DNA of 64,000 bases from Squalus acanthias. Lineage: Eukaryota. Position 1 is the first letter of the stretch. The number at the start of each line of letters is the position of its first letter. Shown one piece after another: positions 3,001 through 48,376 of the stretch. The stretch lies in the NCBI GenBank assembly GCA_030390025.1, contig JASTWF010000033.1:1924001-1988000 (forward strand), read 5' to 3'. Made by a program: the position numbers and the translations under genes. Below the pieces are notes generated by a model. It worked only from the letters and a program-made list of their open reading frames with translations. It was not told where the DNA came from and searched no databases.

Positions 3001-6000
3001 TGGGCTGTTTTGTTCTGTGAAATGTGCTGTCTGGGTCTGAAAATGGAGTTGTCTGGGTCTGTGAATGGAGCTGTCTGGGTCTGTGAATGGAGCTGTCTGA
3101 GTCTGTGAATGGAGTTGTCTGGGTCGGTGAATCGAGCTGTCTGGGTCTGTGAATGGAGCTGTCTGAGTCTGTGAATGGAGCTGTCTGAGTCTGTGAATGG
3201 AGTTGTCTGGGTCGGTGAATCGAGCTGTCTGAGTCTCTGAATGGAGCTGTCTGGGTCTGTGAATGGAGCTGTCTGAGTCTCTAATGGAGCTGTCTGGGTC
3301 TGTGAAATGAGCTTTCTGGATCTTTGAATGGAGCTGTCTGGGTTTGTGAATGGAGTTGTCTGGGTATGTGAATGGAGCTGTCTGGGTCTGTGAATGGAGC
3401 TGTCTGAGTCTGTGAATGGAGCTGTCTGGGTCTGTGAATGAGCTGTCTGGGTCTGTGAATGGAGCTGTCTGGGTCTGTGAATGGAGCTGTCTGGGTCTGT
3501 GAATGGAGCTGTCTGGGTCTGTGAATGGAGCTGTCTGGTCTGTGAATGGAGCTGTCTGGGTCTGTGAATGGAGCTGTCTGGGTCTGTGAATGGAGCTGTC
3601 TGGATCTGTGAATGGAGCTGTCTGAGTCTGAGAATGGTGCTGTTTGGGTCTGTGAATGGAACTGTCTGTGTCTGTGAATAGGCTGTTTTGTTCTGTGAAA
3701 TGTGCTGTCTGGGTCTGAAAATGGAGTTGTCTGGGTCTGTGAATGGAGCTGTCTGGGTCTGTGAATGGAGCTGTCTGAGTCTGTGAATGGAGTTGTCTGG
3801 GTCGGTGAATCGAGCTGTCTGTGTCTGTGAATGGAGCTGTCTGCGTCTGTGAATGGAGCTGTTTGGGTCTGTGAATGGAGCTGTCTGGTTCTGTGAATGG
3901 AGCAGTCTGGGTCTGTAAATGGAGCTGTCTGGGTCTGTGAATGGAGCTGTCTGAGTCTGTGAATGGTGCTGTTTGGGTCTGTGAATGGTGCTATCTATGT
4001 CTGTGAATGGAGCTATCTGTATCGGTGATTGAGCTGTCTGGGTCTGTGAATGGTGCTGTCTGGGTCTGTAAATGGAGATGTCTAGGTCTGTGAATGAGCT
4101 GTCTTTGTTTGTGAATGGAGCTGTCTGTGTCTGTGAATGAAGCTGTCTGGGTCTGTGAATGAGCTGTCTTGGTCTGTGAATGGAGCTGTCTGTGTCTGTG
4201 AATGGAGCTGTTTGGGTCTGTGAATGGATCTGTCTGGGTCTGTGAATGGAGCTGTCGTGTCTGTGAATGGTGCTGTCTGGGTCTGTGAATGGAGCTGTCT
4301 TGGTCTGTTAATGGAGCTGTCTGTGTCTGTGAATGGAGCTGTCTGGGTCTGTGAATGGAGCTGTCTGGGTCTGTGAATGGAGCTGTCTGTGTCTGTGAAT
4401 GGAGCTGTCTGGGTCTGTGAATGGAGCTATCTGTGTCTGTGAATGAGCTGTCTGGATCTGTGAATGGAGCTGTCTGAGTCTGAGAATGGTGCTGTCTGGG
4501 TCTGTGAATGGAGCTGTCTGTGTCTGTGAATGGAGCTGTCTTGGTCTGTGAAATGGTGCTGTCTGGGTCTGAAATGAGCTGTCTGGGCTGTGAATGGAGC
4601 TGTCTGGGTCTGTGAATGGAGCTGTCTGTGTCTGTGAATGGAGCTGTTTGGGTCTGTGAATGAGCTGTCTTGGTCTGTGAATGGAGCTGTCTGTGTCTGT
4701 GAATGGAGCTGTTTGGGTCTGTGAATGGAGCTGTCTGGGTCTGTGAATGGAGCTGTCTGTGTCTGTGAATGAGGCTGTCTGGGTCTGTGAATGGAGCTGT
4801 CTTGGTCTGTTAATGGAGCTGTCTGGGTCTGTGAAATGAGCTGTCTGAGTCTGTAAATGGAGCTGTCTAGATCTGTGAATGGAACTGTCTGTGTCTGTGA
4901 ATGAGCTGTCTGGGTCTGTGAATAGAGCTGTCTGACGTTGTTAATGGAGCTTTCTGGGTCTTTGAAGTCAGCCGTCTGGATCTTTGAATGGAGCTGTCTG
5001 AGTGTCTGAAATGAGCTTTCTGAGTCTCTGAATGGAGATGTCTGGGTCTGTCAAATGAATTGTCTGAATCTGTTCGTGAAATGAGCTGTCTGTTTTTTTC
5101 AAATCAGCTTTCCATGTCTGTCAATGGAGCTGTCTGGGTTTGTGAATTGAGTTGTCTGGGTCTGTGAATGGAGCTGTCTGAGCATGTGAATGGATCTGTC
5201 TGGGTCTGTGAATAGAGCTGTCTGGATCTGTGAAATGAACTTTCGGACTCTGTGAATGGAGCTGTCTGAGCATGTGAATGGATCTGTCTGGGTCTGTGAA
5301 TGGTTTTATCTAGGTCTCTGAAATTAACTTTCTGAGTCTGTGAATGGAGCTGTCTGAATCTGTGAATGAATCTAACAACAGAAAACGCTGGAAAACTCTG
5401 CAGGCCAGGCACAATCCGTGGAGAGAGAAACAGAGTTAACGTTTCAGGTCGAAAAACTCTCGTGAATGGAGCTGTTTGGGTCTGTGAATGGAGCTGTCTG
5501 TGTCTGTGAATGGAGCTGTTTGTGTCTGTGAATGGAGCTGTCTGGGTCTGTAAATGGAGCTGTCTGTGTCTGTGAATGGGGCTGTGTGGGTCTGTGAATG
5601 GAGCTGTTTAAGTCTGTAAATGGAGCTGTCTGGGTCTGTGAAATGAGCTGTCTGAGTCTGTAAATGGAGCTGCCTAGATCTGTGAATGGAACTGTCTGTG
5701 TCTGTGAATGAACTGTCTGGGTCTGTGAAATGTGCTGTCTGGGTCTGAAAATTGAGTTGTCTGTGTCTGTGAATAGAGCTGTCTGACGTTGTTAATGGAG
5801 CTTTCTGGGTCTTTGAAGTCAGCCGACTGGATCTTTGAATGGAGCTGTCTGAGTGTCTGAAATGAGCTTTGTGAGTCTCTGAATGGAGATGTCTGGGTCT
5901 GTCAAATGAATTGTCTGAATCTGTTCGTGAAATGAGCTGTCTGTTTTTTTTCAAATCAGCTTTCCATGTCTGTCAATGGAGCTGTCTGAGTTTGTGAATT

Positions 6001-9000
6001 GAGTTGTCTGGGTCTCTGAATGGAGCTGTCTGAGCATGTGAATGGATCTGTCTGGGTCTGTGAATGGTTTTATCTAGGTCTCTGAAATTAACTTTCTGAG
6101 TCTGTGAATGGAGCTGTCTGATTCTGTGAATGAATCTAACAACAGAAAACGCTGGAAAACTCTACAGGCCAGGCACAATCCGTGGAGAGAGAAACAAAGT
6201 TAACGTTTCAGGTCGAAGAACTCTCGTCAATGGAGCTGTCTGGGTCTGTGAATGGAGCTGTCTTGGTCGATGAAATGAGCTGTCTGTGTCTTTGAATGGA
6301 GCTGTCTGGATCTGTGAAATTAGCTGTCTGGGTCTGTGAAATCAGCTGCCTGGGTCCGTGAATGAAGCTGACTGAGTCTGTAAATGGAGCAGTCTGGGTC
6401 TGTGAATGGAGCTGTCTGAGTCTGTGAATGGTGCCGTTTGGGTCTGTGAATGGAGCTATCTGTGTCTGTGAATGAGCAGTCTTTGTCTGTGAATGGAGCT
6501 GTCTGTGTCTGTGAATGGAGTTGTCTGGGTCTGTGAATGGAGCTGTCTGGGTCTGTGAATGGAGCTGTCTGAGTCTCTGAATGGAGCTGTCTGGGTCTGT
6601 GATTGGAGCTGTCTGAGACTCTAAATGGAGCTGTCTGGGTCTGTGAAATGAGCTTTCTGGATTTTTGAATGGAGCTGCCTGGGTTTGTGAATGGAGTTGT
6701 CTGGGTATGTGAATGGAGCTGTCTGGGTCTGTGAATGGAGCTGTCTTAGTCTGTGAATCGAATTGTCTGGGTCGGTAAATCGAGCTGTCTGGGTCTGTGA
6801 ATGGAGCTGTCTGAGTCTGTGAATGGAGCTGTCTGGTTCTGTGAATGGAGCTGTCTGGGTCTGTGAATGGAGCAGTCTGGGTCTGTGAATGGAGCTGTCT
6901 GGGTCTGTGAATGGAGCTGTCTGAGTCTGTGAATGGTGCTGTTTGGGACTTTGAATGGAGCTATCTGTGTCTGTGAATGAGCTGTCTGCATCTGTGAATG
7001 GAGCTGTCTGAGTCTGAGAATTGTGCTGTTTGGGTCTGTGAATGGAGCTATCTGTATCGGTGATTGAGCTGTCTGGGTCTGTGAATGGTGCTGTCTGGAT
7101 CTGTAAATGGAGCTTCCTGGTTCTGTGAATGTGTTGTCTTTGTTTGTGAATGGAGTTGTCTGTGTCTGTGAACGGAGCCGTCTGGGTCTGTGAATGAGCT
7201 GTCTTGGTCTGTGAATGGAGCTGTCTGAGTCTGTGAATGGAGCTGTCTTGGTCTGTAAATGGAGCTGTCTGGATCTGTGAAATGAGCTGTCTGAGTCTGT
7301 AAATGGAGCTGTCTGAGTCTGTGAATGGAGCTGTCTGTGTCTGTGAATGGAGCTGTTTGTGTCTGTGAATGAGCTGTCTTGGTCTGTGAATGGAGCTGTC
7401 TGTGTCTGTGAATGGTTGCTGTTTGGGTCTGTGAATGGAGCTGTCTGGGTCTGTGAATGGAGCTGTCTGTGTCTGTGAATGAGGCTGTCTGGGTCCGTGA
7501 ATGGAGCTGTCTTGGTCTGTGAATGGAGCTGTCTGGGTCTGTGAAATGAGCTGTCTGAGTCTTTAAAGCGAGCTGTCTGGATCTGTGAATGGAACTGTCT
7601 GTGTCTGTGAATGAGCTGTCTGGGCATGTGAAATGTGCTGTCTGGGTCTGAAAATGGAGTTGTCTGGGTCTGTGAATAGAGCTGTCTGACGTTGTTTAAG
7701 GAGCTTTCTGTGTCTTTGAAGTCAGCCGTCTGGATCTTTGAATGGAGCTGTCTGAGTGTCTGAAATGAGCTTTCTGAGTCTCTGAATGGAGATGTCTGGG
7801 TCTGTCAAATGAATTGTCTGAATCTGTTCGTGAAATGAGCTGTCTGTTTTTTTCCAACCAGCTTTCCATGTCTGTAAATGGAGCTGTCTGGGTTTGTGAA
7901 TTGAGTTGTCTGGGTCTGTGAAAGCAGCTGTCTGAGCATGTGAATGGATCTGTCTGGGTCTGTGAATAGAGATGTCTGGATCTGTGAAATGAACTTTCGG
8001 ACTCTGTGAATGGAGCTGTCTGAGCATGTGAATGGATCTGTCTGGGTCTGTGAATGGTTTTATCTAGGTCTCTGAAATTAACTTTCTGAGTCTGTGAATG
8101 GAGCTGTCTGAATCTGTGAATGAATCTAACAACAGAAAACGCTGGAAAACTCTGCAGGCCAGGCACAATCCGTTGAGAGAGAAACAGAGTTAACGTTTCA
8201 GGTCGAAAAACTCTCGTGAATGGAGCTGTTTGGGTCTGTGAATGGAGCTGTCTGTGTCTGTGAATGGAGCTGTTTGTGTCTGTGAATGGAGCTGTCTGGG
8301 TCTGTAATGGAGCTGTCTGTGTCTGTGAATGGGGCTGTGTGGGTCTGTGAATGGAGCTGTTTAAGTCTGTAAATGGAGCTGTCTGGGTCTGTGAAATGAG
8401 CTGTCTGAGTCTGTAAATGGAGCTGCCTAGATCTGTGAATGGAACTGTCTGTGTCTGTGAATGAACTGTCTGGGTCTGTGAAATGTGCTGTCTGGGTCTG
8501 AAAATTGAGTTGTCTGTGTCTGTGAATAGAGCTGTCTGACGTTGTTAATGGAGCTTTCTGGGTCTTTGAAGTCAGCCGACTGGATCTTTGAATGGAGCTG
8601 TCTGAGTGTCTGAAATGAGCTTTCTGAGTCTCTGAATGGAGATGTCTGGGTCTGTCAAATGAATTGTCTGAATCTGTTCGTGAAATGAGCTGTCTGTTTT
8701 TTTTCAAATCAGCTTTCCATGTCTGTAAATGGAGCTGTCTCGGTTTGTGAATTGAGTTGTCTGGGTCTGTGAATGGAGCTGTCTGAGTCTGTGAATGGAT
8801 CTGTCTGGGTCTGTGAATGGTTTTATCTAGGTCTCTGAAATTAACTTTCTGAGTCTGTGAATGGAGCTGTCTGAATCTGTGAATGAATCTAACAACAGAA
8901 AACGCTGGAAAACTCTGCAGGCCAGGCACAATCCGTGGAGAGAGAAACAGAGTTAACGTTTCAGGTCGAAGAACTCTCGTCAATGGAGCTGTCTGGGTCT

Positions 9001-9106
9001 GTGAATGGAGCTGTCTTGGTCGATGAAATGAGCTGTCTGTGTCTTTGAATGGAGCTGTCTGGATCTGTGAAATTAGCTGTCTGGGTCTGTGAAATCAGCT
9101 GCCTGG
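1..9106 (-). repeat. 22-bp satellite array, G/T-rich strand on + (unit TCTGTGAATGGAGCTGTCTGGG), with ~2.75-kb higher-order repeat
   Basis: Hundreds of tandem 20-22-bp variants. Diagnostic inserts recur at 5371/8125 and 6135/8888 (offset ~2754). Confidence 0.97.
5371..8981 (-). mobile_element. Four ~94-bp Penelope-terminus/SINE-like fragments embedded in the satellite (5371-5463, 6135-6228, 8125-8218, 8888-8981)
   Basis: Reverse complement GACGAGAGTTCTTCGACCTGAAACGTTAACTCTGTTTCTCTCTCCACGG...TTCCAGCGTTTTCTGTT aligns to the 3' end of the Penelope element at 48340-48444. Confidence 0.8.
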
Positions 9107-9606
9107 NNNNNNNNNNNNNNNNNNNNNNNNNNNNNNNNNNNNNNNNNNNNNNNNNNNNNNNNNNNNNNNNNNNNNNNNNNNNNNNNNNNNNNNNNNNNNN
9201 NNNNNNNNNNNNNNNNNNNNNNNNNNNNNNNNNNNNNNNNNNNNNNNNNNNNNNNNNNNNNNNNNNNNNNNNNNNNNNNNNNNNNNNNNNNNNNNNNNNN
9301 NNNNNNNNNNNNNNNNNNNNNNNNNNNNNNNNNNNNNNNNNNNNNNNNNNNNNNNNNNNNNNNNNNNNNNNNNNNNNNNNNNNNNNNNNNNNNNNNNNNN
9401 NNNNNNNNNNNNNNNNNNNNNNNNNNNNNNNNNNNNNNNNNNNNNNNNNNNNNNNNNNNNNNNNNNNNNNNNNNNNNNNNNNNNNNNNNNNNNNNNNNNN
9501 NNNNNNNNNNNNNNNNNNNNNNNNNNNNNNNNNNNNNNNNNNNNNNNNNNNNNNNNNNNNNNNNNNNNNNNNNNNNNNNNNNNNNNNNNNNNNNNNNNNN
9601 NNNNNN
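9107..9606. other. Assembly gap (500 N)
   Basis: Run of exactly 500 N, typical of a fixed-size scaffolding gap. Confidence 0.99.
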
Positions 9607-12600
9607 CAGCTGATTTCACGGACCCAGACAGCTCATTTCACAGATCCAGTCAGCTCCATTCAAAGACACAGACAGCTCATTTCATCGAACAAGACAGCTC
9701 CATTCCCAGACCCAGACAGCTCCATTGACGAGAGTTCTTCGACCTGAAACGTTAACTCTGTTTCTCTCTCCACGGATTGTGCCTGAGCTGCAGAGTTTTC
9801 CAGCGTTTTCTGTTGTTAGATTCATTCACAGATTCAGACAGCTCCATTCACAGACTCAGAAAGTTAATTTCAGAGACCTAGATAAAACCATTCACAGACC
9901 CAGGCAGAACCATTCACAGACTCAGACAGATCCATTCACAGACTCCGAAAGTTCATTTCACAGATCCAGACAGCTCCATTCACAGACCCAGAGAGATCCA
10001 CTCACATGCTCAGACAGCACCATTCACAGACCCAGACAACTCATTTCACAAACCCAGACAGCTCCATTTACAGACATGGAAAGTTGTTTTGAAAAAAACA
10101 GACAGCTGATTTCACGAACAGATTCAGACAATTCATTTGACAGACCCAGACATCTCCATTCAGAGACTCAGAAAGCTCATTTCAGACACTCAGACAGCTC
10201 CATTCAAAGATTCAGACGGCTGACTTCAAAGACCCAGAAAGCTCCATTAACAACGTCAGACAGCTCTATTCACAGACCCAGACAACTCCATTTTCAGACC
10301 CAGACAGCACATTTCACAGACCCAGACAGCTCATTCACAGACACAGACAGTTCCATTGACAGATCCAGACAGCTCCATTTATAGACTCAGACAGCTCATT
10401 TCACAGACCCAGACAGCTCCATTCACAGACCAAGACAGCTCCATTCACAGACCCAGACAGCCTCATTCACAGACACAGACAGCTCCATTCACAGACCCAG
10501 ACAGCTCCATTCACAGACCCAAACAGCTCCATTCACAGACACAGACAGTTCCATTCACAGATCCAGACAGCTCCATTTACAGACTCAGACAGCTCATTTC
10601 ACAGACCCAGACAGCTCCATTCACAGACCAAGACAGCTCCATTCACAGACCCAGACAGCCTCATTCACAGACACAGACAGCTCCATTCACAGACCCAGAC
10701 AGCTCCATTCACAGACACAAACAGCTCCATTCACAGACACAGACAGCTCCATTCACAGACCAAGACAGCTCATTCACAGACCCAGACAGCTCCATTCACA
10801 GACACAGACAGCTCCATTCACAAACAAAGACAGCTCATTCACAGACCCAGACATCTCCATTTACAGACCCAGACAGCACCATTCACAGACCCAGACAGCT
10901 CAATCACCGATACAGATAGCTCCATTCACAGACCCAAACAGCACCATTCTCAGACTCAGACAGCTCTATTCACAGATCCAGACAGCTCATTCACAGACAT
11001 AGATAGCTCCATTCACAGACCCAAACAGCACCATTCACAGACTCAGACAGCTCCATTCACAGACCCAGACAGCTCCATTCACAGACCCAGACTGCTCCAT
11101 TCACAGAACCAGACAGCTCCATTCACAGACCCAAACAGCTCCATTCACAGACTCAGACAGCTCCATTCACAGACCCAGACAGCTCGATTCACCGACCCAG
11201 ACAACTCCATTCACAGACTCAGACAGCTCCATTCACAGACCCAGACAGCTCCATTCACAGACCCAGACAACTCCATTTTCAGACCCAGACAGCACATTTC
11301 ACAGAACAAAACAGCCCATTCACAGACACAGACAGTTCCATTCACAGACCCAAACAGCACCATTCTCAGACTCAGACAGCTCCATTCACAGATCCAGACA
11401 GCTCATTCACAGACACAGACAGCTCCATTCACAGACCCAAACAGCACCATTCACAGACTCAGACAGCTCCATTCACAGACCCAGACAGCTCCATTCACAG
11501 ACCCAGACAGCTCCATTCACAGAACCAGACAGCTCCATTCACAGACTCAGACAGCTCCAGTTACAGACCCAGACAGCTCGATTCACCGACCCAGACAACT
11601 CAATTCACAGACTCAGACAGCTACATTTACAGACCCAGACAGCTCGATTCACCGACCCAGACAACTCCATTCACAGACTCAGAGAGCTCCATTCACAGAC
11701 CCAGGCAGCTCCATTCACATACCCAGACAACTCCATTCACAAACCCAGGTAGCTCCATTCAAAAATCCAGAAAGCTCATTTCACAGACCCAGACAGCTCC
11801 ATTTAGAGACTCAGACAGCTCCAATCACAGACCCAGACAGCTCCATTCAGAGACTCAGACAGCTCCATTCACAGACCCAGACAGCTCCATTCAAAGAACC
11901 AGACAACTCCATTCACAGACTAAGACAGCTCCATTCACAGAACCAGACAGCTGCATTCACAGACTCAGACAGCTCCATTCACAGACACAGACAGCTCGAT
12001 TCACCGACCCAGACAACTCCATTCACAGATTCAGACAGCTCCATTCACATACTCAGAAAGTTCATTTCAGACACCGAGATAAAACCATTCACATACCCAG
12101 ACAGATCCATTCACAGCCTCAGACAGCTCCATTCACAGACTCATAAAGTTCATTTCACAGATCCAGACAGCTCCATTCACAGACCCAGACAGATCTATTC
12201 ACAGACTCAGACAGCTCCATTCACAGACACAGACAACTCCATTCACAAACCCAGACAGCTCCATTTACAGACATGGAAAGCTGATTTGAAAAAAACAGAC
12301 AGCTCATTTCACGAACAGATTCAGACAATTCATTTGACAGACCCAGACATCTCCAGTCAGAGACTCAGAAAGCTCATTTCAGACACTCAGACAGCTCCAT
12401 TCAAAGATCCAGACGACTGACTTCAAAGACTCTGAAAGCTCAGGTCACAGATCCAGACAGCTCCATTAACAACGTCAGACAGCTCTATTCACAGACCCAG
12501 ACATCTCCATTTTCAGACCCAGACAGCTTATTCACAGACACAGACAGTTCCATTCACAGATCCAGACAGCTCCATTTACAGACTCAGACAGCTCCATTCA

Positions 12601-23615: not shown

Positions 23616-24584
23616 TCAGCTGCTATTCCAATATACAGTCAATCTTAATACAAACTTTCTATGTGCCACGCAGAATCTCTGGGATCATAAATTGCCATGA
23701 GCTGGATAGTCAGGGTTTCCTGCTCCCAGAGAATTCTGTCCCACCATAAAGTGTTGGGAAAGAGATGGAGACATGCGTAACAGCAAAATGTTACCGCTTC
23801 TCAGCACAAAATAAGATGTCGGAAAGTGGTATTTCCGATCTGAGAAGATGTACTGATGTTCACACAATGGAACATTAATCCGTGTAGAAATGTGAGAAAT
23901 GTACAATGTTCCGGGTGACTAGGAAGTTATTGGTTATCTTCATAATGTTAGTGAAATCTTCTCTAAGATTAGTCCTTAAATTAAGGAGCTTTTTTAACCC
24001 AATTTAATGACGAACGGAAAGACATTTGTAATTTCCCAAATCTTCAGTATAAGAAACTTATACCAAAATGAAAAAAACGGAGTGTAATTATTGGTCGACC
24101 AGTTCAAATCGACGGCGAATGTTTTCTGCTCTAACATTACACTGACTGAATTAGGCGGCAATTCTATTTCTAATTCTAATCTGTGATATAACAGATCTGT
24201 TATAAAAACATATTCAGTGATTGTATGTGTAAAACAGCTGAAAAATTGTTGGCAATTTCAGATATTCAATGTAATCGGAGAATGATTAGGGACAGGAAAA
24301 TACCATTCGGGTCAATCAGTCTGTCCCTGTTTGAGAGATGAAGCCACCTAACCCTCCTCTCAGAGTATCCACAAAAACACGCTCAATTTTCTCTAGACCC
24401 CACTTACAGTGCACTTTAGTGTCCTTCCCTGGTAACTGGTCTCCCCGCTCTAATACGCATTGGGAGATAAAAGTTCCCTGATTTCCATTCTTACTTCTGA
24501 TTTTCAATTGTCTCCGTTATTAATTATTTTGGTACTTGTTTCCTGCACTAATGTTGTGAATTCCATTAAAACATTTCAAACATT

Positions 24585-25050
24585 TCCGCCAATGTTAGAG
24601 CGATGAAAATCGGAGATGCACAAGAGGCCAGAATTGGAGGAGCGCAGAGATCTCTGAGGATGATAGGGCTGGAGGTTACAGAGAGAGGGAGGAAAAAGAC
24701 CATGAAACAATTAAAAATAGGAATGAGAAATTTAAAACTAAGGCGTTGTTGGATCAGGAGCAAATGTAGCTCAGCGAGCGCAGGGGGTGATGGGTGAACG
24801 GGACTTGGTGCAATTAGAATATGGGCAGCAGAGTTTTGAATTAGCTCAAGATTACGGAGGGTACATCGTGGAAGGCTGACCAGGAGATCATTGGAATAGT
24901 TGAGTCTGGATGTAACAAAGGTATTGATGAGAGTTTCAGCAGCAGATGAGTTGAGGCAGCAGCGGAGATGAGCAATGCTTTGGAGGTGGAAGAAGGCAGT
25001 CTTGGTGATGAACAAGATATCAGGTCGGAACATTAGCTGAGGGTCAAATA
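24585..25050 (-). mobile_element. L2-clade LINE 3' fragment (degenerate ORF2 C-terminus)
   Basis: AETLINTFVTSRLNYSNDLLVSLP...LIQNSAAHIL resembles the L2 ORF2 motif AFVTSRLDYCNSLLxGLP...IQNSAARLL. Confidence 0.8.
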
Positions 25051-25120
25051 AGCCCCGATTAGGACTTCTGACAACTTAGTCTGTTTCACACCCAGTTCAA
25101 ACAATACCGCAGCTGACATG

Positions 25121-25308
25121 CCCACGGTCTGAGACAGGAAGAGTGGACCTTCTGACCATTTTCAGTCTGTCCCTCTCCCAGTACACACAATGCTCCAGAT
25201 AACCTTTCCACGGACTGATACGATGACAGTGGGACTACTGGCCATTCACAGTCTGTCCCTCTCCCAGTACACACAATCCTCCAGATAACCATCCCACGGA
25301 CTGATACA
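25121..25308 (+). repeat. 86-bp minisatellite, left part (~2 units) cut off by the CR1 insertion
   Basis: Same unit as 28494-29655. Confidence 0.9.
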
Positions 25309-28300
25309 TAGAAACATAGAACAGTACAGCACAGTACAGGCCCTTCGGCCCTCGATGTTGTGCCGAGCATTGTCCGAGACCAAGATCAAGCTATCCCACT
25401 CCCTATCACTCTGGTGTGCTCCATGTGCTTATCCAATAACCGCTTGAAAGTTCCTAAAGTTTCCGACTCCACTATCACAGCAGGCAGTCCATTCCACACC
25501 CCAACCACTCTCTGAGTAAAGAATCTACCTCGGACATACCTTCTATATCTCCCCCCATGCACCTTATAGTTATGCCCCCTTGTAACAGCTGCCTCTACCC
25601 GAGGAAATAGTCTGTGAACATCCACTCTATCTATCCCCCTCATCAGGTAGAGCAGTTGATGTCGTATACATGGATTTTAGTAAGGCGTTTGATAAGGTTC
25701 CCCATGGTCGTCTCATGAAGAAAGTAAGGAGTTGTGGGATAGAGGGAAATTTGGCCGATTGGATAAGTAACTGGCTATCTCATAGAAGGCAGAGGGTGGT
25801 GGTGGATGGAACATTTTCGGACTGGAGACCAGTTACCAGCGGTGTGCCACAGGGGTCGGTGCTGGGTCCTCTGCTGTTTGTGATTTTTATCAATGACTTG
25901 GAGGAGGGGACTGAAGGGTGGATCAGTAAATTTGCTGATGACACCAAGATTGGTGGAGTAGTGGATGAGGTGGAGGGCAGTTGTAGGCTGCAAAGAGACA
26001 TTGATAGGATGCAGAGCTGGGCCGAAAAATGGCAGATGGAATTTAACCCTGATAAGTGCGAGGTGATTCATTTTGGTAGGGCAAATTTGAATAAGGATTA
26101 CAGGGTGAACGGCAGGGTTCTGAGGAACGTGGAGGAGCAGAGGGATCTGGGGGTTCATATCCACAGATCTCTGAAGGTTGCCACTCAAGTGGATAGAGCA
26201 GTAAAGAAGGCCTATGGTGTGTTGGCGTTTATTAACAGAGGGTTTGAGTTTAAGAACAGTGAGGTTATGCTGCAACTATACAGGACCTTGGTGAGACCAC
26301 ATTTGGAATATTGTGTGCAGTTCTGGTCACCTCACTATAGGAAGGACGTGGAAGCATTGGAAAGAGTGCAAAGGAGATTTACCAGGATGCTGCCTGGTTT
26401 GGGGGGGAGGTCTTATGAGGAAAGATTGAGGGAGTTGGGGCTTTTCTCTTTAGAGCGGAGGAGGATGAGAGGCGACTTAATAGGATATATCCCATCTGGC
26501 CCAGGTGACTTATCGACCCTCAGGTTCTTCAAAATTGCTAAAACATCTTCCCACAGAACATCTACCACCTCCAGCCTATCCACCTTTATCACACTCTCAT
26601 CCTCAAGAACATGGCCCCTCTCCTCGGTGAATACTGACGAAAAGTATTCATTCATCACCTCTCCTATCTCTTCTGACTCCATGCACAAGTTCCCACTACT
26701 GTCCTTGACCGGCCCTACACTCACCCTGGTCATTCTTTTATTTCTCACATAAGAGTAAAAAGCCTTGGGGTTTTTCTTGATCCGACCCGCCAAGGACTTC
26801 TCATGCCCCCTCCTAGCTCTCCTAAGCTCTTTTTTTAGCTCATTCCTTGCTACCTTGTACCCCTCAATCGACCCAACTGAACCTTGTTTTCTCATCCTTA
26901 CATACGCTTCCTTTTTCCTCTTGACTAGACATTCAACCTCTTTTGTGAACCATGGTTCTCTCACTCGGCCATTTCCTCCCTGCCTGACAGGGACATACCT
27001 ATCAAGGACACGCAGTAATTGCTCCATGAAAAAGCTCCAATTTTCGTTTGTGCCTTTCCCTGATAGTTTCCGTTCCCATCTTATGCTCCCTAATTCTTGC
27101 CTAATCGCATCATAATTACCCCTCCCCCAATTATAAACCCTGCCCTGCCGTATGGCCCTATCCCTCTCCATTGCAATAGTGAAAGTTACCGAATTGTGGT
27201 CACTATCTCCAAAGTGCTCTCCCACATACAAATCAAACACTTGGCCCGGTTCATTACCCAGTACCAAATCCAACGTGGCCCCACCTCTTGTCGGCCTATC
27301 TACATATTGTGTCAGGAAACCCTCCTGCACACACTGTGCAAAAACTATCCCATCCGAACTGTTTGACCTATAAAGGTTCCAATCAATATTTGGAAAGTTG
27401 AAGTCACCCATGACAACTACTCTGTGACCTCCACACCTATTCATAATCTGCTTTGCAATTTCTTCCTCCACATCTCTATTACTATTTGGGGGCCTGTAGA
27501 AAACTCCTAACAACGTGACCGCTCCTTTCCTATTTCTAACTTCAGCCCATATTACCTCAGACGGCAGATCACCCTCGAACTGCCTTTCTGCCGCTGTTAA
27601 ACTATCCTTGATTAACAATGCTACTCCTCCACCTTTCTTACCACCTTCCCTACTCTTACTGAAACATCTATACCCCGAAACTTCCAACAACCATTCCTGT
27701 CCCTGTTCTAACCATGTCTCCGTGCTGGCCACCACATCGTAGTCCCAAGTACCAATCCACGCTCCAAGTTCTCCTACCTTATTCCGGATGCTCCTTGCAT
27801 TGAAGTAGACACACTTCAAGCCATCTTCCTGTCTGCCGTTACATTCCTGCGACCTTGATACCCTCCTCAGTACCTCCCTACACTCACCACTGGCTCCTGG
27901 ACTACAGCCCTTTTTCCCATCCCACTGACAAATTAGTTTAAACCCCCCCGAAGAGCCGTAGCAAATTTCCCTCCCAGGATATTGGTGCCCCTCTGGTTCA
28001 GGTGCAAACCGTCCTGTTTGTACAGGTCCCACCTTCCCCAAAATTTGCTCCAATTATCCACATAACTGAAACCCTCCCCCCTACACCATCCCTACAGCCA
28101 CGTGTTTATCTGCACTCTCTCCCTGTTCCTCAACTCGCTAGCACGTGCCACCGGCAACAAAGCAGAGATTACAACATGGTTTGTACTGGCTCTCAGCTTC
28201 CAACCTAGCTCCCTAAATTCCTGTTTTAAATCCCCGTCCCTTCTCCTACCTATGTCGTTGGTACCGATGTGTACCACGACTTGTGATTGTTCCCCCTCCC

Positions 28301-28493
28301 CCTTGAGGATTCTGAAAACACGGTCCGAGACGTCACGGACCCTGGCACCCGGGAGGCAACATAGCATCCTTGAGTCTCTTTTGCTGCCACAGAACCTCCT
28401 ATCTGTCCCTCTGACTATTGAGTCCGCAATAACTATTGCTCTCCTGCTCTCCCCCCTTCCCTTCTGAGCCACAGGGACGGACCCAGCGCCGGA
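25309..28493 (-). mobile_element. 5'-truncated CR1 LINE with internal inversion and deletion; ORF1 SGNH-esterase part, ORF2 APE endonuclease, RT, 3'UTR and (TTCTATGT)n-type tail
   Basis: ORF1 shows IADSIVRG...HIGTND. The endonuclease shows YFNARSIRNK, TETW, MGDFNFP and SDHN. The C-terminus reads FFTQRVVGVWNGLP. Tail is ACATAGAAACATAGAA, and GATACA is duplicated at 25303-25308 and 28494-28499. Confidence 0.93.
25645..26483 (+). mobile_element. Inverted reverse-transcriptase segment of the CR1 (GRAVDVVYMDFSKAFD...GVPQGSVLGP...FADD...RGDLI)
   Basis: RT motifs are on + while the flanking CR1 parts are on -. Confidence 0.92.
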
Positions 28494-29655
28494 GATACAA
28501 TGACAGTGGGACTCGTGGCCATTCACAGTCTGTCCCTCTCCCAGAACACCCAATCCTCCAGATAACCATCCCACGGTCTGATACAATGACAGTGGGACTC
28601 CTGGCCATTCACAGTCTGTCCCTCTCCCAGTGCACGCAGTGCTCCAGATATCCATCCCACGGTCTCATACAGTGACAGTGGGACTAGTGGCCATTCACAG
28701 TGTGTCCCTCTCCCAGTACACACAATGCTCCAGATAAACATCCCACGGTCTGATACAATGACAGTGGGACTAGTGACCATTCACAGTCTGTCCCTCTCCC
28801 AGTACACACAATCCTCCAGATAACCATCCCACGGTCTGATACAATGACAGGGTAACTAGTGGCCATTCACAGTCTGTCCCTCTCCCAGTACACACAATCC
28901 TCCAGATAACATTCCCACTGTCTGATACAATGACAGTGGGACTCCTGGCCATTCACAGTCTGTCACTCTCCCAGTACACACAATTCTCCAGATAACCATC
29001 CCACGGTCTGAGACAATGACAGTGGGACCAGTGACCATTCACAATCTGTCCCTCTCCCAGTACACACAATGCTCCCGAAAACGTTCCCACGGTCTGATAC
29101 AATGACAGTGGAACGAGTGCCCATTCACAATCTGTCCTTCTCCCAGTACACACAATCCTCCAGATAACCTTCTCACGTTCTGATACAATGACAGTGGGAC
29201 TCCTGGCCATTCACAGTCCGTCCCATTCCCAGTACACACAATCCTCCAGATAACCTTCCCACGGTCTAATACAATGAGAGTGGGACACGTGACCATTCAC
29301 AGTCTGCCCCTCTCCCAGTGCACACAATCCTCCAGATAACCATCCCACGGTCTGATACAATGACAGGTGGACTAGTGACCGTTCACAGTCTGTCCCTCTC
29401 CCAGTACACACAATCCGCCAGATAAACATCCCGCGGTCTGATATAATTACAGTGGGACTAGTGGCCATTCACAGTCTGTCCCTCGCCCAGTACACACAAT
29501 CCTCCAGATAACCATCCCACGGCCTGATACAATTACAATGGGACTCCTGGCCATTCACAGACTGTCCCTCTCCCAGTACACACAATCCTCCAGATAAACA
29601 TCCCACGGTCTGATACAATGACAGGTGGACTAGTGGCCATTCACAGTCTGTCCCT
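28494..29655 (+). repeat. 86-bp minisatellite, ~13.5 copies
   Basis: Unit CCCACGGTCTGATACAATGACAGTGGGACTAGTGGCCATTCACAGTCTGTCCCTCTCCCAGTACACACAATCCTCCAGATAACCAT. ORF ends step by 86 bp. Confidence 0.95.
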
Positions 29656-30047
29656 ATCCTTCTCGTTTCTTCTAGCTACTCCCTTGGAAGATTGATCAAT
29701 GAGATCCACTACTGTTGTATAACCAGGGTCGTGTGTGGATTTGTAATCACATATCTACAGTACAAAGCAGCGCTGATGGCATTAACTATCAAAGGGAAAA
29801 TATCACTCTCAGAAGTCTCCATGTTCAGTGAATATTAGAATCAAGTGAGAATTTGAAACACATTTTGGCCATTGTTCACTTTCCAGCGAGGTTTGCATTA
29901 ACTGAGTTTTAATTTCTGCATGCATCTCTATTGAAGCTGCGAATTAAATCTTGCAATATTTTACTGAATAGTGAAATGGTATTGAGAAGTTTTTTTTTGT
30001 CAATACAACGAATACTGAGAACCACTTTCTGTCTCTTCTAATTGAAG

Positions 30048-30432
30048 ATGTTCAACAGAAACACAAGGAAACACTCCGGGTACAAACTGAAACACTGATA
30101 GTGAACACTATCCTAATAAAGGAGAAGGTTAAGATTTTCCAGCTGGTTGATCGATACGCTGATCTAACGGTCATTTCTACTGTGCGAGATCGGACACTTG
30201 TAGAACATGAACTGCTGGCAAGAGGCCGAGACCATGAAGAGTGGAGAAAGCAACATCTCCGGGGAGAGCTGGAAAAAATCCGAACTGATCAATTGTTCCA
30301 GAGCAGTTTTTCACGGAGAAAATCCAATTCTGGGAGTTCAGGAGCAGTGAGCGGAGTCCCGGGGTTTGGAAAAACAACAATGGTGCAAAAGATTGTTCAT
30401 GACTTGGCCACTGGGAAAATATACCCACACTT
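30048..30432 (+). pseudogene. Truncated duplicate of the NLR NACHT exon 5' part (to just past Walker A), fused to the 22-bp satellite
   Basis: Acceptor TTTCTGTCTCTTCTAATTGAAG|ATG, then VQQKHKETLR...GVPGFGKTTMVQKIVHDLATGKIYPH, then satellite. Confidence 0.9.
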
Positions 30433-33400
30433 CACAGACTCAGACAGCTACATTTACAGACCCAGACAGCTCGATTCACCGACCCAGACAACTCCATTCA
30501 CAGACTCAGAGAGCTCCATTCACAGACCCAGGCAGCTCCATTCACATACCCAGACAACTCCATTCACAAACCCAGGTAGCTCCATTCAAAAATCCAGAAA
30601 GCTCATTTCACTGACCCAGACAACTCCATTTAGAGACTCAGACAGCTCCAATCACAGACCCAGACAGCTCCATTCAGAGACTCAGACAGCTCCATTCACA
30701 GACCCAGACAGCTCCATTCAAAGAACCAGACAACTCCATTCACAGACTAAGACAGCTCCATTCACAGAACGAGACAGCTGCATTCACAGACTCAGACAGC
30801 TCCATTCACAGACACAGACAGCTCGATTCACCGACCCAGACAACTCCATTCACAGATTCAGACAGCTCCATTCACATACTCAGAAAGTTCATTTCAGACA
30901 CCTAGATAAAACCATTCACATACCCAGACAGATCCATTCACAGACTCAGACAGCTCCATTCACAGACTCCGAAAGTTCATTTCACAGATCCAGACAGCTC
31001 CATTCACAGACCCAGACAGATCTATTCACAGACTCAGACAGCTCCATTCACAGACACAGACAACTCCATTCACAAACCCAGACAGCTCCATTTACAGACA
31101 TGGAAAGCTGATTTGAAAAAAACAGACAGCTCATTTCACGAACAGATTCAGACAATTCATTTGACAGACCCAGACATCTCCATTCAGAGACTCAGAAAGC
31201 TCATTTCAGACACTCAGACAGCTCCATTCAAAGATCCAGACGACTGACTTCAAAGACTCTGAAAGCTCAGGTCACAGACCCAGACAGCTCCATTAACAAC
31301 GTCAGACAGCTCTATTCACAGACCCAGACATCTCCATTTTCAGACCCAGACAGCTTATTCACAGACACAGACAGTTCCATTCACAGATCCAGACAGCTCC
31401 ATTTACAGACTCAGACAGCTCCATTCACAGACCCAGACAGCTCCATTCACAGACCTAGACAGCTCAATTCACAGACCCAGACAGCTCATTCACCGACACA
31501 GATAGCTTCATTCACAGACCCAAACAGCACCATTCTCAGATTCAGACAGCTCCATTCACAGATCCAGACAGCTCATTCACAGACACAGATAGATCCATTC
31601 ACAGACCCAAACAGCACCATTCACAGACTCAGACAGCTCCATTCACAGACCCAGACAGCACCATTCACAGACCCAGACAGCTCCATTCACAGACCCAGAC
31701 AGCTCCATTCACAGACCCAGACAGCTCCATTCACAAACTAAGACAGCTCCATTCACAGACCCAGACAGCTCGATTCACCGACCCAGACAACTCAATTCAC
31801 AGACTCAGACAGCTCCATTCACAGACCCAGACAGCTCCATTCACAGACCCAGACAGCTCCATTCACAAACTAAGACAGCTCCATTCACAGACCCAGACAG
31901 CTCGATTCACCGACCCAGACAACTCAATTCACAGACTCAGACAGCTCCATTCACAGACCCAGACAGCTCCATTCACAGACCCAGACAAATCCATTTTCAG
32001 ACCCAGACAGCTCATTTCACAGACTCAGACAGCTCCATTCACAAATCCAGACAGCTCATTCACAGACACAGATAGCTCCATTCACAGACCCAAACAGCAC
32101 CATTCACAGACTCAGACAGCTCCATTCACAGACCCAGACAGCTCCATTCACAGACCCTGAAAGCTCAATTCACAGACTCAGACAGCTCCATTCACAGACC
32201 CAGACAGCTCGATTCACCGACCCAAACAACTCCATTCACAGACTCAGACAGCTCCATTCACAGACCCAGACAGCTCCATTGACGAGAGTTCTTCGACCTG
32301 AAACGTTAACTCAGTTTCTCTCTCCACGGATTGTGCCTGGCCTGCAGAGTTTTCCAGCGTTTTCTGTTGTTAGATTCATTCACAGATTCAGACAGCTCCA
32401 TTCACAGACTCAGAAAGTTAATTTCAGAGAACTAGATAGCACCATTCACAGACACAGACAGTTCCATTCACAGACCCAGACAGCTCCATTCACAGACTCC
32501 GAAAGTTCATTTCACAGATCCAGACAGCTCCATTCACAGACACAGACAGATCCATTCACAGACTCAGACAGCTCCATTCACAGACCCAGACAACTCCATT
32601 CACAAACACAGACAGCTCCATTTACAGACCCAGACATCTGTATTTACAGGCACACGCAGCTCCATTCACAGACATGGACAGCTCCATTCACAGACTCAGA
32701 CAGCTTCTTTCACAGACCCAGACAGCTCCATTCACTGACCCAGACAGCTCATTCACAGACACAGATAGCTACATTCACAGACTCAGACAGCTCTATTCAC
32801 AGACCCAGACAGCTCCATTCACAGACCCAGATAACTCCATACACAGATTGAGAAAGCTCCATTTACAGACTCTGGCACCTCCATTCACAGACACAGACAG
32901 CTCCATCACAGACTCAAACCGCTCCATTTACAGACCCAGTGAGCTCCATTTACTGACTCTGACAGCTCAATTCACAGACCCATGCAGCTCCATTCACAGA
33001 CCCAGACAACTCATTGCACAGACTCAGTCAGCTCAATTCACAGACCCTGACATCACAATTCACAAAGCCAGCCAGCTCCATTCACAGAGCCAGCCAGCTC
33101 CATTCATAGACTCAGACAGCTCCATTCACAGACCCAGACAACTCCATTCACAAACACAGACAGCTCCATTTACAGACCCAGACAGCTGTATTTACAGGCA
33201 CTCGCAGCTCCATTCACAGACATGGACAGCTCCATTCACCGACTCAGACAGCTTCTTTCACAGACCCAGACAGCTCCATTCACAGAACGAGTCAGCTCCA
33301 TTTACAGACTCTGGCAGCTCCATTCACAGACTCAGACAGCTCCATTCACTGACCCAGACAGCTCATTCACAGACACAGATAGCTACATTCACAGACTCAG

Positions 33401-36179
33401 ACAGCTCTATTCACAGACCCAGACAGCTCCATTCACAGACCCAGATAACTCCATACACAGACTGAGACAGCTCCAGTTACAGACTCTGGCACCTCCATTC
33501 ACAGACACAGACAGCTCCATCACAGACTCAAACCGCTCCATTTACAGACCCAAACAGCTCCATTTACAAACCCAGAGAGCTCCACTTACTGACTCTGACA
33601 GCTCAATTCACAGACCCATGCAGCTCCATTCACAGACCCAGACAGCTCCATTCACAGACCTAGACAGCTCAATTCACAGACCCAGACAGCTCATTCACCG
33701 ACACAGATAGCTTCATTCACAGACCCAAACAGCACCATTCTCAGATTCAGACAGCTCCATTCACAGATCCAGACAGCTCATTCACAGACACAGATAGATC
33801 CATTCACAGACCCAAACAGCACCATTCACAGACTCAGACAGCTCCATTCACAGACCCAGACAGCACCATTCACAGACCCAGACAGCTCCATTCACAGACC
33901 CAGACAGCTCCATTCACAGACCCAGACAGCTCCATTCACAAACTAAGACAGCTCCATTCACAGACCCAGACAGCTCGATTCACCGACCCAGACAACTCAA
34001 TTCACAGACTCAGACAGCTCCATTCACAGACCCAGACAGCTCCATTCACAGACCCAGACAAATCCATTTTCAGACCCAGACAGCACATTTCACAGACTCA
34101 GACAGCTCATTCACAGACACAGACAGTTCCATTCACAGACCCAAACAGCACCATTCTCAGACTCAGACAGCTCCATTCACAAATCCAGACAGCTCATTCA
34201 CAGACACAGATAGCTCCATTCACAGACCCAAACAGCACCATTCACAGACTCAGACAGCTCCATTCACAGACCCAGATAGCTCCATTCAAAGACCCAGACA
34301 GCTCCATTCACAGACCCTGAAAGCTCCATTCACAGACCCAGACAGCTCCATTCACAGACTCAGACAGCTCCATTCACAGACCCAGACAGCTCGATTCACC
34401 GACCCAAACAACTCCATTCACAGACTCAGACAGCTCCATTCACAGACCCAGACAGCTCCATTGACGAGAGTTCTTCGACCTGAAACGTTAACTCAGTTTC
34501 TCTCTCCACGGATTGTGCCTGGCCTGCAGAGTTTTCCAGCGTTTTCTGTTGTTAGATTCATTCACAGATTCAGACAGCTCCATTCACAGACTCAGAAAGT
34601 TAATTTCAGAGAACTAGATAGCACCATTCACAGACACAGAAAGTTCCATTCACAGACCCAGACAGCTCCATTCACAGACTCCGAAAGTTCATTTCACAGA
34701 TCCAGACAGCTCCATTCACAGACACAGACAGATCCATTCACAGACTCAGACAGCTCCATTCACAGACCCAGACAACTCCATTCACAAACACAGACAGCTC
34801 CATTTACAGACCCAGACATCTGTATTTACAGGCACACGCAGCTCCATTCACAGACATGGACAGCTCCATTCACAGACTCAGACAGCTTCTTTCACAGACC
34901 CAGACAGCTCCATTCACAGACCGAGTCAGCTCCATTCACAGACTCAGACAGCTTCTTTCACAGACCCAGACAGCTCCATTCACTGACCCAGACAGCTCAT
35001 TCACAGACACAGATAGCTACATTCACAGACTCAGACAGCTCTATTCACAGACCCAGACAGCTCCATTCACAGACCCAGATAACTCCATACACAGATTGAG
35101 AAAGCTCCATTTACAGACTCTGGCACCTCCATTCACAGACACAGACAGCTTCATCACAGACTCAAACCGCTCCATTTACAGACCCAGTGAGCTCCATTTA
35201 CTGACTCTGACAGCTCAATTCACAGACCCATGCAGCTCCATTCACAGACCCAGACAACTCATTGCACAGACTCAGTCAGCTCAATTCACAGACCCTGACA
35301 TCACAATTCACAGAGCCAGCCAGCTCCATTCACAGAGCCAGCCAGCTCCATTCACAGACTCAGACAGCTCCATTCACAGACCCAGACAACTCCATTCACA
35401 AACACAGACAGCTCCATTTACAGACCCAGACAGCTGTATTTACAGGCACTCGCAGCTCCATTCACAGACATGGACAGCTCCATTCACCGACTCAGACAGC
35501 TCCATTCACAGACTCAGACAGCTCCATTCACAGACCCAGACAACTCCATTCACAAACACAGACAGCTCCATTTACAGACCCAGACAGCTGTATTTACAGG
35601 CACTCGCAGCTCCATTCACAGACATGGACAGCTCCATTCACCGACTCAGACAGCTTCTTTCACAGACCCAGACAGCTCCATTCACAGAGCGAGTCAGCTC
35701 CATTCACAGACTCAGACAGCTCCATTCACTGACCCAGACAGCTCATTCACAGACACAGATAGCTGCATTCACAGACTCAGACAGCTCTATTCACAGACCC
35801 AGACAGCTCCATTCACAGACCCAGATAACTCCATACACAGACTGAGACAGCTCCAGTTACAGACTCTGGCACCTCCATTCACAGACACAGACAGCTCCAT
35901 CACAGACTCAAACCGCTCCATTTACAGACCCAAACAGCTCCATTTACAAACCCAGAGAGCTCCACTTACTGACTCTGACAGCTCAATTCACAGACCCATG
36001 CAGCTCCATTCACAGACCCAGACAACTCATTGCACAGACTCAGTCAGCTCAATTCACATACCCTGACATCACAATTCACAGAGCCAGAAAGCTGCATTCA
36101 CAGACACAGACAGTGCCATTCACAGACCCAGAAAGCTAATTTCACAGACCAGACAGCTCTATACACAGACTCAGAAAGC
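30431..36179 (+). repeat. 22-bp satellite (duplicate of 16797-22676)
   Basis: Same variant order as 16797-22676. Inserts at 32281 and 34463. Confidence 0.96.
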
Positions 36180-48339: not shown

Positions 48340-48376
48340 AGTTCTGACCAAGGGTCCTCGACCTGAAACATTAACT
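48340..48376 (+). ncRNA. Degenerate minimal type I hammerhead ribozyme motif in the Penelope terminus
   Basis: AGTT-CTGAcCA-A-GGGTC(CTC)GACCT-GAAAC-aTT-AACT. Helix I is AGTT/AACT and helix II is GGGTC/GACCT. Two core substitutions versus CUGANGA/GAAAC-GUH. Confidence 0.55.

Follow-up and report, generated by a model that had tools for sequence, protein, structure and literature searches.

Hammerhead sequences are known from satellite DNA, satellite 2 of newts being a further hammerhead satellite. Minimal hammerheads (min-HHRs) have been described in the pLTRs of metazoan Penelope-like elements (PLEs; Cervera and De la Pena 2014, PMC4209133), where most motifs are reported to be single and probably to stem from truncated PLEs, and 5' truncation is described as typical of these elements (PMC8557442). 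Retrozymes and hammerhead satellites are, in the published accounts, built from short regular units, each with a complete and often tested ribozyme. The endonuclease of a Poseidon PLE is reported to prefer ATT (PMC11167929), and the 500-bp repeat of Arabidopsis has a proposed origin from pAL1 and a foreign insertion (PMC8122249). No description of the satellite insert treated here was found in the literature searched, subscription papers and Repbase lying outside its scope.

The DNA analysed was a 64,000-nt stretch of Squalus acanthias (assembly GCA_030390025.1, contig JASTWF010000033.1, positions 1,924,001-1,988,000 of the forward strand), referred to as the window. TRF found a satellite with a period of 22 bp, and 1071 monomers, with a mean of 2.0 mismatches against the consensus, were counted across three arrays. 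Array A (1-9106) was delimited by the TRF period and the monomer count and carries its monomers in minus orientation; array B (9607-22676, plus strand, TRF) is a patchwork of duplicated 0.4-5.2-kb blocks; and array C (30431-36179, plus strand, TRF) opens the second copy of a 13.5-kb tandem duplication. Between arrays A and B lies an assembly gap of 500 N (9107-9606) with satellite on either side, the same homologous satellite position starting each flank in opposite orientations.

A sequence-only reading of the window had placed eleven copies of a ~94-bp insert in this satellite, and all eleven were recovered at those positions and strands, each measured as a 93-bp body plus a short junction and the quoted core motifs reading as given. 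Four lie on the minus strand, namely copies 1 (5369-5465), 2 (6133-6229), 3 (8123-8219) and 4 (8886-8982), with copies 1-2 and 3-4 sitting in a 2.75-kb duplication. The others lie on the plus strand: copies 5 (9726-9822), 6 (13584-13680) and 7 (16368-16464), copy 8 (18777-18873) within a 2450-bp block copied from 11447-13896, copy 9 (20959-21055) within an 1833-bp block identical to 14848-16680, and copies 10 (32280-32376) and 11 (34462-34558), which are duplicates of copies 8 and 9, respectively. The orientation of the insert relative to the monomer is identical in all eleven, and the split between strands is an inversion of the whole array across the 500-N gap. Pairwise, the copies differ by 0-5 positions in 97 nt and form 6 haplotypes, but they are not independent, since those at 32281 and 34463 fall in the 13.5-kb duplication (0 mismatches over 7781 bp). 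The copies at 5371 and 8125 had been called more degenerate, a description that comes down to differences at two core or helix sites, a C in place of G5 and a change of one loop base. At position 5 these two copies (1 and 3) have the satellite base again, a return to the satellite consensus; their upstream flanks also carry other variants, and an exchange at the junction, in register with the satellite, would fit both.

An alignment of the insert to the 3' end of a Penelope element, proposed in the same reading, was reproduced by BLAST (82.5% identity over 80 nt against 48355-48434, E 1e-17), and the inserts derive from the hammerhead-bearing end of a PLE. The element concerned is the 3' part of a decayed PLE (46187-48444, plus strand) and contains an ORF remnant with a GIY-YIG-like stretch and one in-frame stop. 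The GIY-YIG match is weak (E 0.0098, below the Pfam cut-off), and the remnant also gave HTH_animal look-alikes (0.91-0.93) of low recognition score. It is broken at about 46930-47930 by a piece that, from its translation, we take to be CR1-like. Downstream of the remnant lies the related pLTR end, whose hammerhead-bearing part (48336-48444; the 48344 copy) has 4 pairs in helix I, 5 pairs in helix II and changes at G8 and G16.2. At about 17% divergence, this element is a relative of the same family and not the donor. At its 3' side the insert stops about 5 nt or less from the short end of the 48344 copy, and among 9 other Penelope copies in the window the 3' end takes two positions that differ by a short tail.

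We next consider the junctions, which are identical on both sides in 11/11 inserts. It had been suggested that C3 of the hammerhead was replaced by U; there is no such mutation, position 3 being the satellite monomer's own T where the element stops. The 5' truncation falls within the CUGANGA box, separating U4 from the lost C3, so that the seeming U3 is a satellite base and helix I is gone. Copy 6 begins at U4 (13584), a T common to the satellite, and has its putative cleavage site after 13611. Its 3' end lies near the element's terminus and its 5' end at U4. A G at monomer position 5 is found in 1% of the satellite versus 9/11 insert junctions. In contigs of 4 of the 23 sequencing runs, which served for this comparison, dispersed family copies align from 13584 onward, their loose 5' end carrying an intact arm and C3 in 4/4 runs; the satellite contigs, among the matches listed, reach as far as 13584 in three of these four runs. 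We also considered an insert that started with the helix I arm and then lost 12 nt, and rejected it on the ungapped alignment of family copies from 13584. CATT flanks the insert on both sides, as at copy 6. Compared with the empty site, the filled one is longer by two monomers, CATT and the insert, so that the target-site duplication may be 4 nt with some multiple of 22 added, unless the empty site arose by later deletion. Contigs from an independent run of organism A span the junctions with 4-8 differences, and contigs of runs under two other organism labels span the right one, indicating a long history of persistence and spread for the insert.

Of the 23 runs, 20 contain all or some of the stretch, and none is recorded as RNA. 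For two runs RNA was guessed: in X16 (organism A) neither junction is spanned by a contig among those listed, the satellite having far less depth than the family, and in X12 (organism D) the right junction is bridged and the depth profile resembles that of the DNA run X6. These comparisons covered 32 of 13,302 contig pieces, and contigs give neither ends nor strand; X16 and X12 are not expression evidence.

The flanks and spacing of the inserts bear on how many insertions there were. The 66-nt downstream flanks of the eleven differ by at most 4 nt, while only 3 of 721 other in-register satellite positions match this flank that well (median 17 mismatches). These three insert-free matches are empty sites, the diagnostic block without an insert at 12020-12085 (plus strand) and its duplicates at 17213 and 30847. 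In addition, in 6/11 copies one variant of the insert is linked to three variants of the flank, and no insert in the window has new flanks of its own, 11/11 sharing one. Since both junctions, the diagnostic downstream flank and the monomer orientation are common to all copies, we attribute them to one insertion event; insertions in both orientations were rejected on the uniform orientation relative to the monomer. Nor does each higher-order repeat carry one core, as had been claimed: successive spacings are 763, 1990, 764, 3858, 2784, 2409, 2182 and 2182 bp, 5.4 kb of array A is insert-free, and empty blocks are present. Of the duplicated blocks, 16 of 74 run through a cleavage site. No block end lies within 30 nt of a cleavage site (0 of 161; 3.9 expected), and none lies within 15 nt of a cleavage site or of an insert 3' end (0 of 418; 5.1 expected for each).

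As to the ribozyme itself, the sequence-only reading was right that satellite replaces the 5' strand of helix I, which forms 0 of 5 pairs in 11/11 copies versus 4 pairs in the 48344 copy, and that helix II carries a mismatch. The best shifted register of helix I gives 3 of 4 pairs across a 3-nt bulge. In helix II, 4 of 5 pairs remain, the central one being a U.C mismatch, and an unpaired base is present; the folding model gave pair probabilities of at most 0.06 in the inserts versus 0.34-0.58 in the 48344 copy. At 13593 nearly all family depth has the helix-II-pairing G in 4/4 runs, and so the mismatch of the insert is derived. U3 faces G8 in 11/11 copies, leaving no C3-G8 or U3-A8 pair, and G5 is lost too in 2/11. 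What all eleven retain is GAAAC-GUU, that is, the GAAA box, the A15.1-U16.1 pair, the palindromic 15.2-16.2 and an NUH triplet. The ~12 PLE-derived core positions are all intact in 9/11 copies. Selection on the core was considered and not adopted, this intactness not being significant against the 10% divergence of the tail (P about 0.28), a comparison that does not by itself exclude selection.

In descriptor searches, 9 of 11 inserts matched only if helix I was not required, and none of the eleven matched a descriptor requiring even one helix I pair; the 48344 copy, with its 4 helix I pairs, matched once its two core defects were allowed. The loosest descriptor also hit an unrelated site in an NLR exon (43995) and is not specific. 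The Rfam hammerhead families matched nothing in the window, the insert or the 48344 control, and having missed the control too, this search was uninformative. Dimer energy modelling likewise gave no separation, with gaps of 14-38 kcal/mol in inserts and controls alike. PMC7151607 lists as a variant a natural hammerhead that has U3 and, beside stem I, a 2-nt insertion, and so U3 alone is no proof of ribozyme death; assayed saltern variants of that U3 type are reported to need at least 75 mM MgCl2 (PMC3088659). In functional minimal hammerheads a helix I of 4-5 bp closes the core, and one of 2 bp is described for a D. virilis variant. The literature searched contained no direct measurement of C3U as the sole change.

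We consider it highly probable that the inserts represent a dead Penelope end, truncated on its 5' side, which was passively amplified along with the satellite. This was the second of two possibilities raised by the sequence-only reading, a dead fragment carried along by unequal crossover, and the shared flank and the blocks running through the GUU site support it. The origin would be one extremely 5'-truncated Penelope-like insertion at a CATT site of the 22-bp satellite. The endonuclease would have nicked the satellite, with reverse transcription of about 97 nt from the short 3' end, and the product may have been joined to the satellite at the T shared between C3 and U4, where the junction is seen, which would have removed C3 and the entire 5' arm of helix I. 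The fragment then gathered its observed substitutions, about 10%, one of them breaking helix II. Together with flanking monomers it would have been multiplied by DNA-level block duplications in satellite register, a pattern visible in the arrays and presumably produced by unequal exchange, slippage or break-induced replication, the 13.5-kb tandem duplication being the latest event. The same exchanges would have replaced the upstream flank in two copies and left or regenerated the empty sites. RNA of the insert is predicted to form no hammerhead as monomer or homodimer, which would make the insert a passive marker of satellite turnover.

The first of the two possibilities was a multi-kb retrozyme-like satellite, whose transcripts would be cut to unit length by its hammerheads, turned into circles and inserted anew with the help of Penelope proteins. 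A core-like motif does repeat in a tandem context here, and PLE-linked tandem type I hammerheads are reported from one chondrichthyan genome (10.64898/2026.07.22.740005). But helix I is absent throughout, all copies share one downstream flank, the spacing of 763-3858 bp compares with units of 150-450 bp in PMC7229834 and 51-972 bp in 10.64898/2026.07.22.740005 (a regular unit would be about 150-450 bp, up to about 1 kb), none of the 418 block ends marks the cleavage site, and empty-site blocks and the insert-free part of array A exist. Since the spacing is irregular and empty flanking blocks occur, there is no retrozyme unit; spread via RNA finds no fixed unit and no boundary at the cleavage site or 3' end, is already largely refuted within the window, and we give it almost no credence. 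Hitch-hiking without cleavage, in which the PLE reverse transcriptase copies upstream satellite into new sites by way of the Penelope 3' end, much as with SINEs, would draw on the short 3' end kept by the insert and on the in vitro insertion of the Anolis PLE without hammerhead cleavage, with internal priming (PMC11167929). It would, however, be expected to give new downstream flanks, whereas all eleven share one with linked variants, and no block end coincides with the insert 3' end. The Anolis template is moreover reported to need sequence beyond its priming sites (PMC11167929), which a fragment ending at the terminus would lack, if the families are comparable. We regard this course as extremely improbable. 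Equally so is the view that the number of copies is mostly an assembly artefact of haplotype duplication and mis-scaffolding. The near identity of the 13.5-kb duplication (3 mismatches and 1 indel in 11.8 kb) and the inverted gap flanks beginning at the same position speak for it; the six insert haplotypes, the junctions bridged in the independent organism A run and under two other organism labels, and a 131-bp offset change within the satellite between the two copies of the 13.5-kb unit speak against it. Such an artefact affects the count of inserts, not their existence.

Somewhat less remote, though still very improbable, is that the insert, dead in cis, is a substrate cut in trans at a fixed site by intact minimal hammerheads out of an abundant pool of Penelope RNA, maybe with assistance from the element's protein. 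It keeps the substrate half, GAAAC-GUU and the 3' arm of helix I, and in a modelled heterodimer this arm pairs 4 of 4 with the 5' arm of the 48344 copy. The Penelope family is heavily represented in all four runs, minimal hammerheads are reported to act as dimers (PMC4209133), and an Anolis PLE hammerhead is reported to cleave only with its protein (PMC11167929). Yet the complex would be held together by only about 8 pairs between the two molecules, in vitro even tandem dimers are described as cleaving poorly (PMC4209133), and the account in PMC11167929 gives no in vivo reads ending at the Anolis site. In short-context folds of 2/3 haplotypes the arm pairs with a GAGUU of the insert itself to form a hairpin (probability 0.6-0.96); in longer-context folds it is not tied up in this hairpin. 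Correspondingly slight are the chances that trans cutting gives satellite transcripts a fixed processing site and that the persistence of the junction under three organism labels reflects selection. If true, this would be a natural trans-acting hammerhead on host satellite RNA.

The passive amplification of a dead Penelope end is the ordinary case, a retroelement end as passenger of a satellite. Because it goes back to one insertion and its right junction is bridged under three organism labels, the insert can serve as a single-origin marker for dating the satellite family and for following block turnover in the arrays. Two cautions for motif scans arise: a satellite base can complete an apparent CUGANGA box, and array duplication can make one decayed motif look like a tandem hammerhead.

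Compared with known systems, the insert has the same origin as the PLE min-HHRs of PMC4209133 and, like those described there, has an extra base between positions 9 and 10.1, GAAAC-GUH, a palindromic 15.2-16.2 and no loop 3; unlike them, it never received C3 and the 5' arm of helix I, its helix II is mismatched and it is located in a satellite. It shares with the non-LTR retrozymes (Cervera and De la Pena 2020, PMC7229834) and the Schistosoma W-elements (PMC8490949) a PLE-related type I hammerhead sequence in a tandem array, and with the hammerhead satellites of Li, Clavereau and Pollet (2026; 10.64898/2026.07.22.740005) a hammerhead sequence that is tandemly repeated, but the unit here, unlike that of retrozymes as described, is a ribozyme-free 22-bp monomer, with inserts irregularly spaced and none complete. 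As in Poseidon PAc of Anolis carolinensis (Frangieh et al. 2024, PMC11167929), about 100 nt separate the hammerhead from the 3' ends, these ends take two positions that differ by a short tail, and ATT is found at the target, although the insert, unlike PAc, has no ORF. Finally, as proposed for the Arabidopsis 500-bp repeat, a single insertion into a satellite would have been spread by unequal exchange or break-induced replication, whereas in the present case a Penelope terminus is the passenger, the unit length is not homogenised, and empty sites coexist with filled ones.

The 22-bp satellite forms three arrays in the tandem-repeat scan, at 1–9106 (− strand), 9607–22676 (+) and 30431–36179 (+), with a 500-N assembly gap (9107–9606) between the first and the second. 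As a sequence-only reading had it, the satellite of the window contains 11 non-satellite inserts, at 5371, 6135, 8125 and 8888 (−) and at 9727, 13585, 16369, 18778, 20960, 32281 and 34463 (+), and its alignment of the insert to a Penelope 3' terminus likewise held, with 82.5% identity to 48355–48434 (E 1e-17) in a BLAST search of the window, where eight further copies were matched at 51.6–60.8 kb. The insert body measures 93 bp in all copies, which differ at 0–5 positions per 97 nt and fall into six haplotypes. Upstream of the copy at 48344, a decayed relative that we used as reference, lie the remains of an ORF that matches GIY-YIG weakly (E 0.0098, under the Pfam cut-off) and whose upstream part resembles HTH_animal clusters (a lead only); this arrangement fits the 3' terminus of a Penelope-like element (PLE). 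PMC4209133 describes minimal hammerheads in the flanking repeats of PLEs, and the insert descends from such a hammerhead.

The left and right junctions are identical in all 11 inserts, as is their orientation relative to the satellite monomer (11 versus 0), copies lying on both strands because the entire array is inverted across the 9107–9606 gap. The 66 nt downstream show at most 4 nt differences among the 11 copies, a flank that, elsewhere in register in the satellite, is matched as well at just 3 of 721 positions (median 17 mismatches), and insert-free matches to this diagnostic block, that is, empty versions, occur at 12020, 17213 and 30847. One insert variant co-occurs with three flank variants, in six copies. 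Several inserts are plain duplicates of other copies: those at 32281 and 34463 lie inside a 13.5-kb tandem duplication (0 mismatches over 7781 bp), that at 18778 inside a 2450-bp block duplicated from around 13585, and that at 20960 inside an 1833-bp block with an identical counterpart around 16369. The 11 inserts thus stem from one insertion, not eleven.

The earlier reading of the core as UUGACGA, with C3 mutated to U, is refuted by the satellite register and by public contigs. Satellite monomers stay in phase up to CATT, core positions 3 and 4 being the monomer's two Ts, and the G that follows is found in 1% of the satellite yet at 9 of 11 junctions, and is therefore element-derived. In all four runs, dispersed family copies in public contigs begin to align at 13584 (numbering of the insert copy at 13584–13680, +), and loose 5' ends of dispersed family contigs terminate in an intact helix I arm and C3 (20, 1, 10 and 7 contigs); contigs of the satellite match as far as 13584 and carry on as satellite beyond it, in the three runs with such contigs among those listed. 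Position 13584 is therefore a shared T, placing the truncation of the insertion between C3 and U4 of the hammerhead core, a point that the public contigs settle. The insert's 3' terminus and the short end of the 48344 copy lie within ~5 nt of each other. CATT is present on either side, and the filled site exceeds the empty one by two monomers, CATT and the insert; the target duplication therefore measures 4 nt plus some multiple of 22, unless the empty site is a later deletion. Truncation at the 5' end is frequent and typical of PLEs (PMC8557442), and an Anolis PLE endonuclease favours ATT (PMC11167929), a resemblance across families to the CATT here. The copies at 5371 and 8125, previously called degenerate, do differ from the others, but in that position 5 is the satellite base again and the upstream flank variants are other ones, which would fit an in-register crossover at the junction. 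Separately, the last bases of the insert (13666–13680) are rich in pyrimidines and then read AG, which would make a candidate cryptic splice acceptor were the array to lie within an NLR intron; at the other acceptor-like site of the family, CACAG, the insert reads CACGG.

Of the hammerhead itself, the insert retains U4-G5-A6 and G8-A9 (9 of 11 copies), GAAAC-GUU, the single unpaired base leading into helix II and the helix I 3' arm. C3 is missing, U3 facing G8; the 5' arm of helix I is gone, with 0 of 5 pairs in all 11 inserts versus 4 pairs in the 48344 copy; and helix II has lost one central pair, at a position where nearly all family depth carries the pairing G (four of four runs), so that the mismatch is derived. 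Shifted registers of helix I give at best 3 of 4 pairs, over a 3-nt bulge, and for helix II the modelled pair probabilities do not exceed 0.06, versus 0.34–0.58 in the 48344 copy. A descriptor without a helix I requirement matched 9 of 11 inserts and one requiring a single helix I pair 0 of 11, the 48344 copy being recovered once its two core defects were allowed. A dimer presumably cannot rescue the insert, because each half still requires the 5' arm in the dimer fold set out in PMC4209133; an Rfam search and dimer energies were uninformative on insert cleavage. There is nevertheless a record of a natural U3 variant carrying a 2-nt insertion (PMC7151607), saltern variants of this kind required at least 75 mM MgCl2 (PMC3088659), and we found no literature measurement of a lone C3U change. 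These variants, together with core positions that are unchanged in 9 of 11 inserts (chance ~0.28 at the tail's 10% divergence), count against a firm call of a dead ribozyme. In the public run X3, position 13590, the unpaired base ahead of helix II, shows T at a summed depth of 33,601, close to the ~35,800 of the non-G remainder at 13593, the two sites being unphased; this suggests that most satellite-borne inserts in X3 may be a variant absent from the window.

The stretch is represented in runs of several coded organisms. Requiring 31 letters on each side, and among the 32 of 13,302 pieces listed, at least three contigs (4–6 differences) from an independent DNA run of organism A bridged the right junction. 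Among the same listed pieces it was also bridged in organism B, by at least one contig with a single difference over 102 nt and at least one low-depth contig with 15 differences, and in a run of organism D, with 10 differences in 90 nt; at least one contig of organism A bridged the left junction. The insertion is therefore real and older than the near-identical copies of the window suggest, and is probably common to related species.

Several other features of the window were recorded. The contig ends flanking the 9107–9606 gap begin at one and the same satellite position to within ~5 nt, in opposite orientation and with a few per cent divergence; the region is either a large palindrome whose centre was not assembled or contains a paralogous or haplotype contig in the wrong orientation. 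On the monomer-sense strand of 1–36179 stop codons are scarce, leaving open frames of up to 686 codons, some crossing an insert, with no evidence of their being genes. The 13.5-kb duplication (18627–30432 and 32130–43936; 3 mismatches and 1 indel in 11.8 kb) is either very recent or a haplotype artefact; its junction near 30431 fuses a truncated NLR NACHT exon to the satellite via a few matching bases, creating an open frame of NACHT start and satellite repeat (29975–31111). An NLR exon with NACHT, NOD2_WH and NLRC4_HD2 (Pfam) lies at 43479–45293, has an in-frame stop at ~44097–44099 and is preceded by 86-bp and 39-bp minisatellites and a CR1-like element. The tandem-repeat scan also gave a 1.4-kb C-rich, ACCCG-based degenerate repeat (48740–50112), and the pol region of a Gypsy-type LTR retrotransposon (55524–59289) is open over 899 codons (RT, RNase H, integrase). 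The NLR, CR1-like and Gypsy sequences identify the host as a vertebrate. The same Penelope end as in the insert also occurs in four head-to-head fold-back pairs (51636–51856, 53391–53613, 54489–54716 and 60613–60821), all decayed, whose two halves meet 3–14 nt upstream of the CUGA box. Of these pairs, the first three at least have common flanks and look like duplicates of one insertion. Truncation close to the core start seems to recur in this family.

How the insert multiplied was judged from the ends of duplicated satellite blocks, taken at ≥250 bp and ≥96% identity (74 blocks, 161 ends) or at ≥150 bp (418 ends), counts that are descriptive only, the blocks being mutually non-independent. 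A retrozyme-like satellite spread through RNA, proposed earlier as a multi-kb unit, predicts fixed-length units bounded at the cleavage site. Spacing is instead irregular (763, 1990, 764, 3858, 2784, 2409, 2182 and 2182 bp), 5.4 kb of the first array contain no insert, and no block end lies within 30 nt of a cleavage site in the first set (0/161; 3.9 expected) or within 15 nt in the second (0/418; 5.1 expected), 16 of the 74 blocks spanning such a site; we hold this origin to be extremely unlikely. Tail-primed hitch-hiking, which predicts boundaries at the insert 3' end and new downstream flanks, is scarcely credible either, with 0/418 ends there (5.1 expected), and the 4/418 near the insert 5' end are at chance level. 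A unit model predicts a strong excess of block ends, and none was seen. What the blocks show is the pattern of exchange at the DNA level, in register with the monomer; the mechanisms of such exchange are reviewed in PMC8122249. That the insert serves as a trans substrate is improbable, and that its multiplicity is mainly an artefact is most improbable.

The best explanation, which we hold with high confidence, is a dead, 5'-truncated Penelope end amplified passively along with the satellite. Compared with known systems, the insert falls short of the PLE minimal hammerhead in three defining features, namely C3-G8, helix I and helix II. It also departs from retrozymes in the two features testable, a regular short unit and a complete ribozyme per unit, known metazoan units measuring 150–450 bp (PMC7229834) or 51–972 bp, the latter with consecutive units that each hold a complete hammerhead (10.64898/2026.07.22.740005). 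It behaves like a foreign element absorbed into a satellite and then amplified with it.
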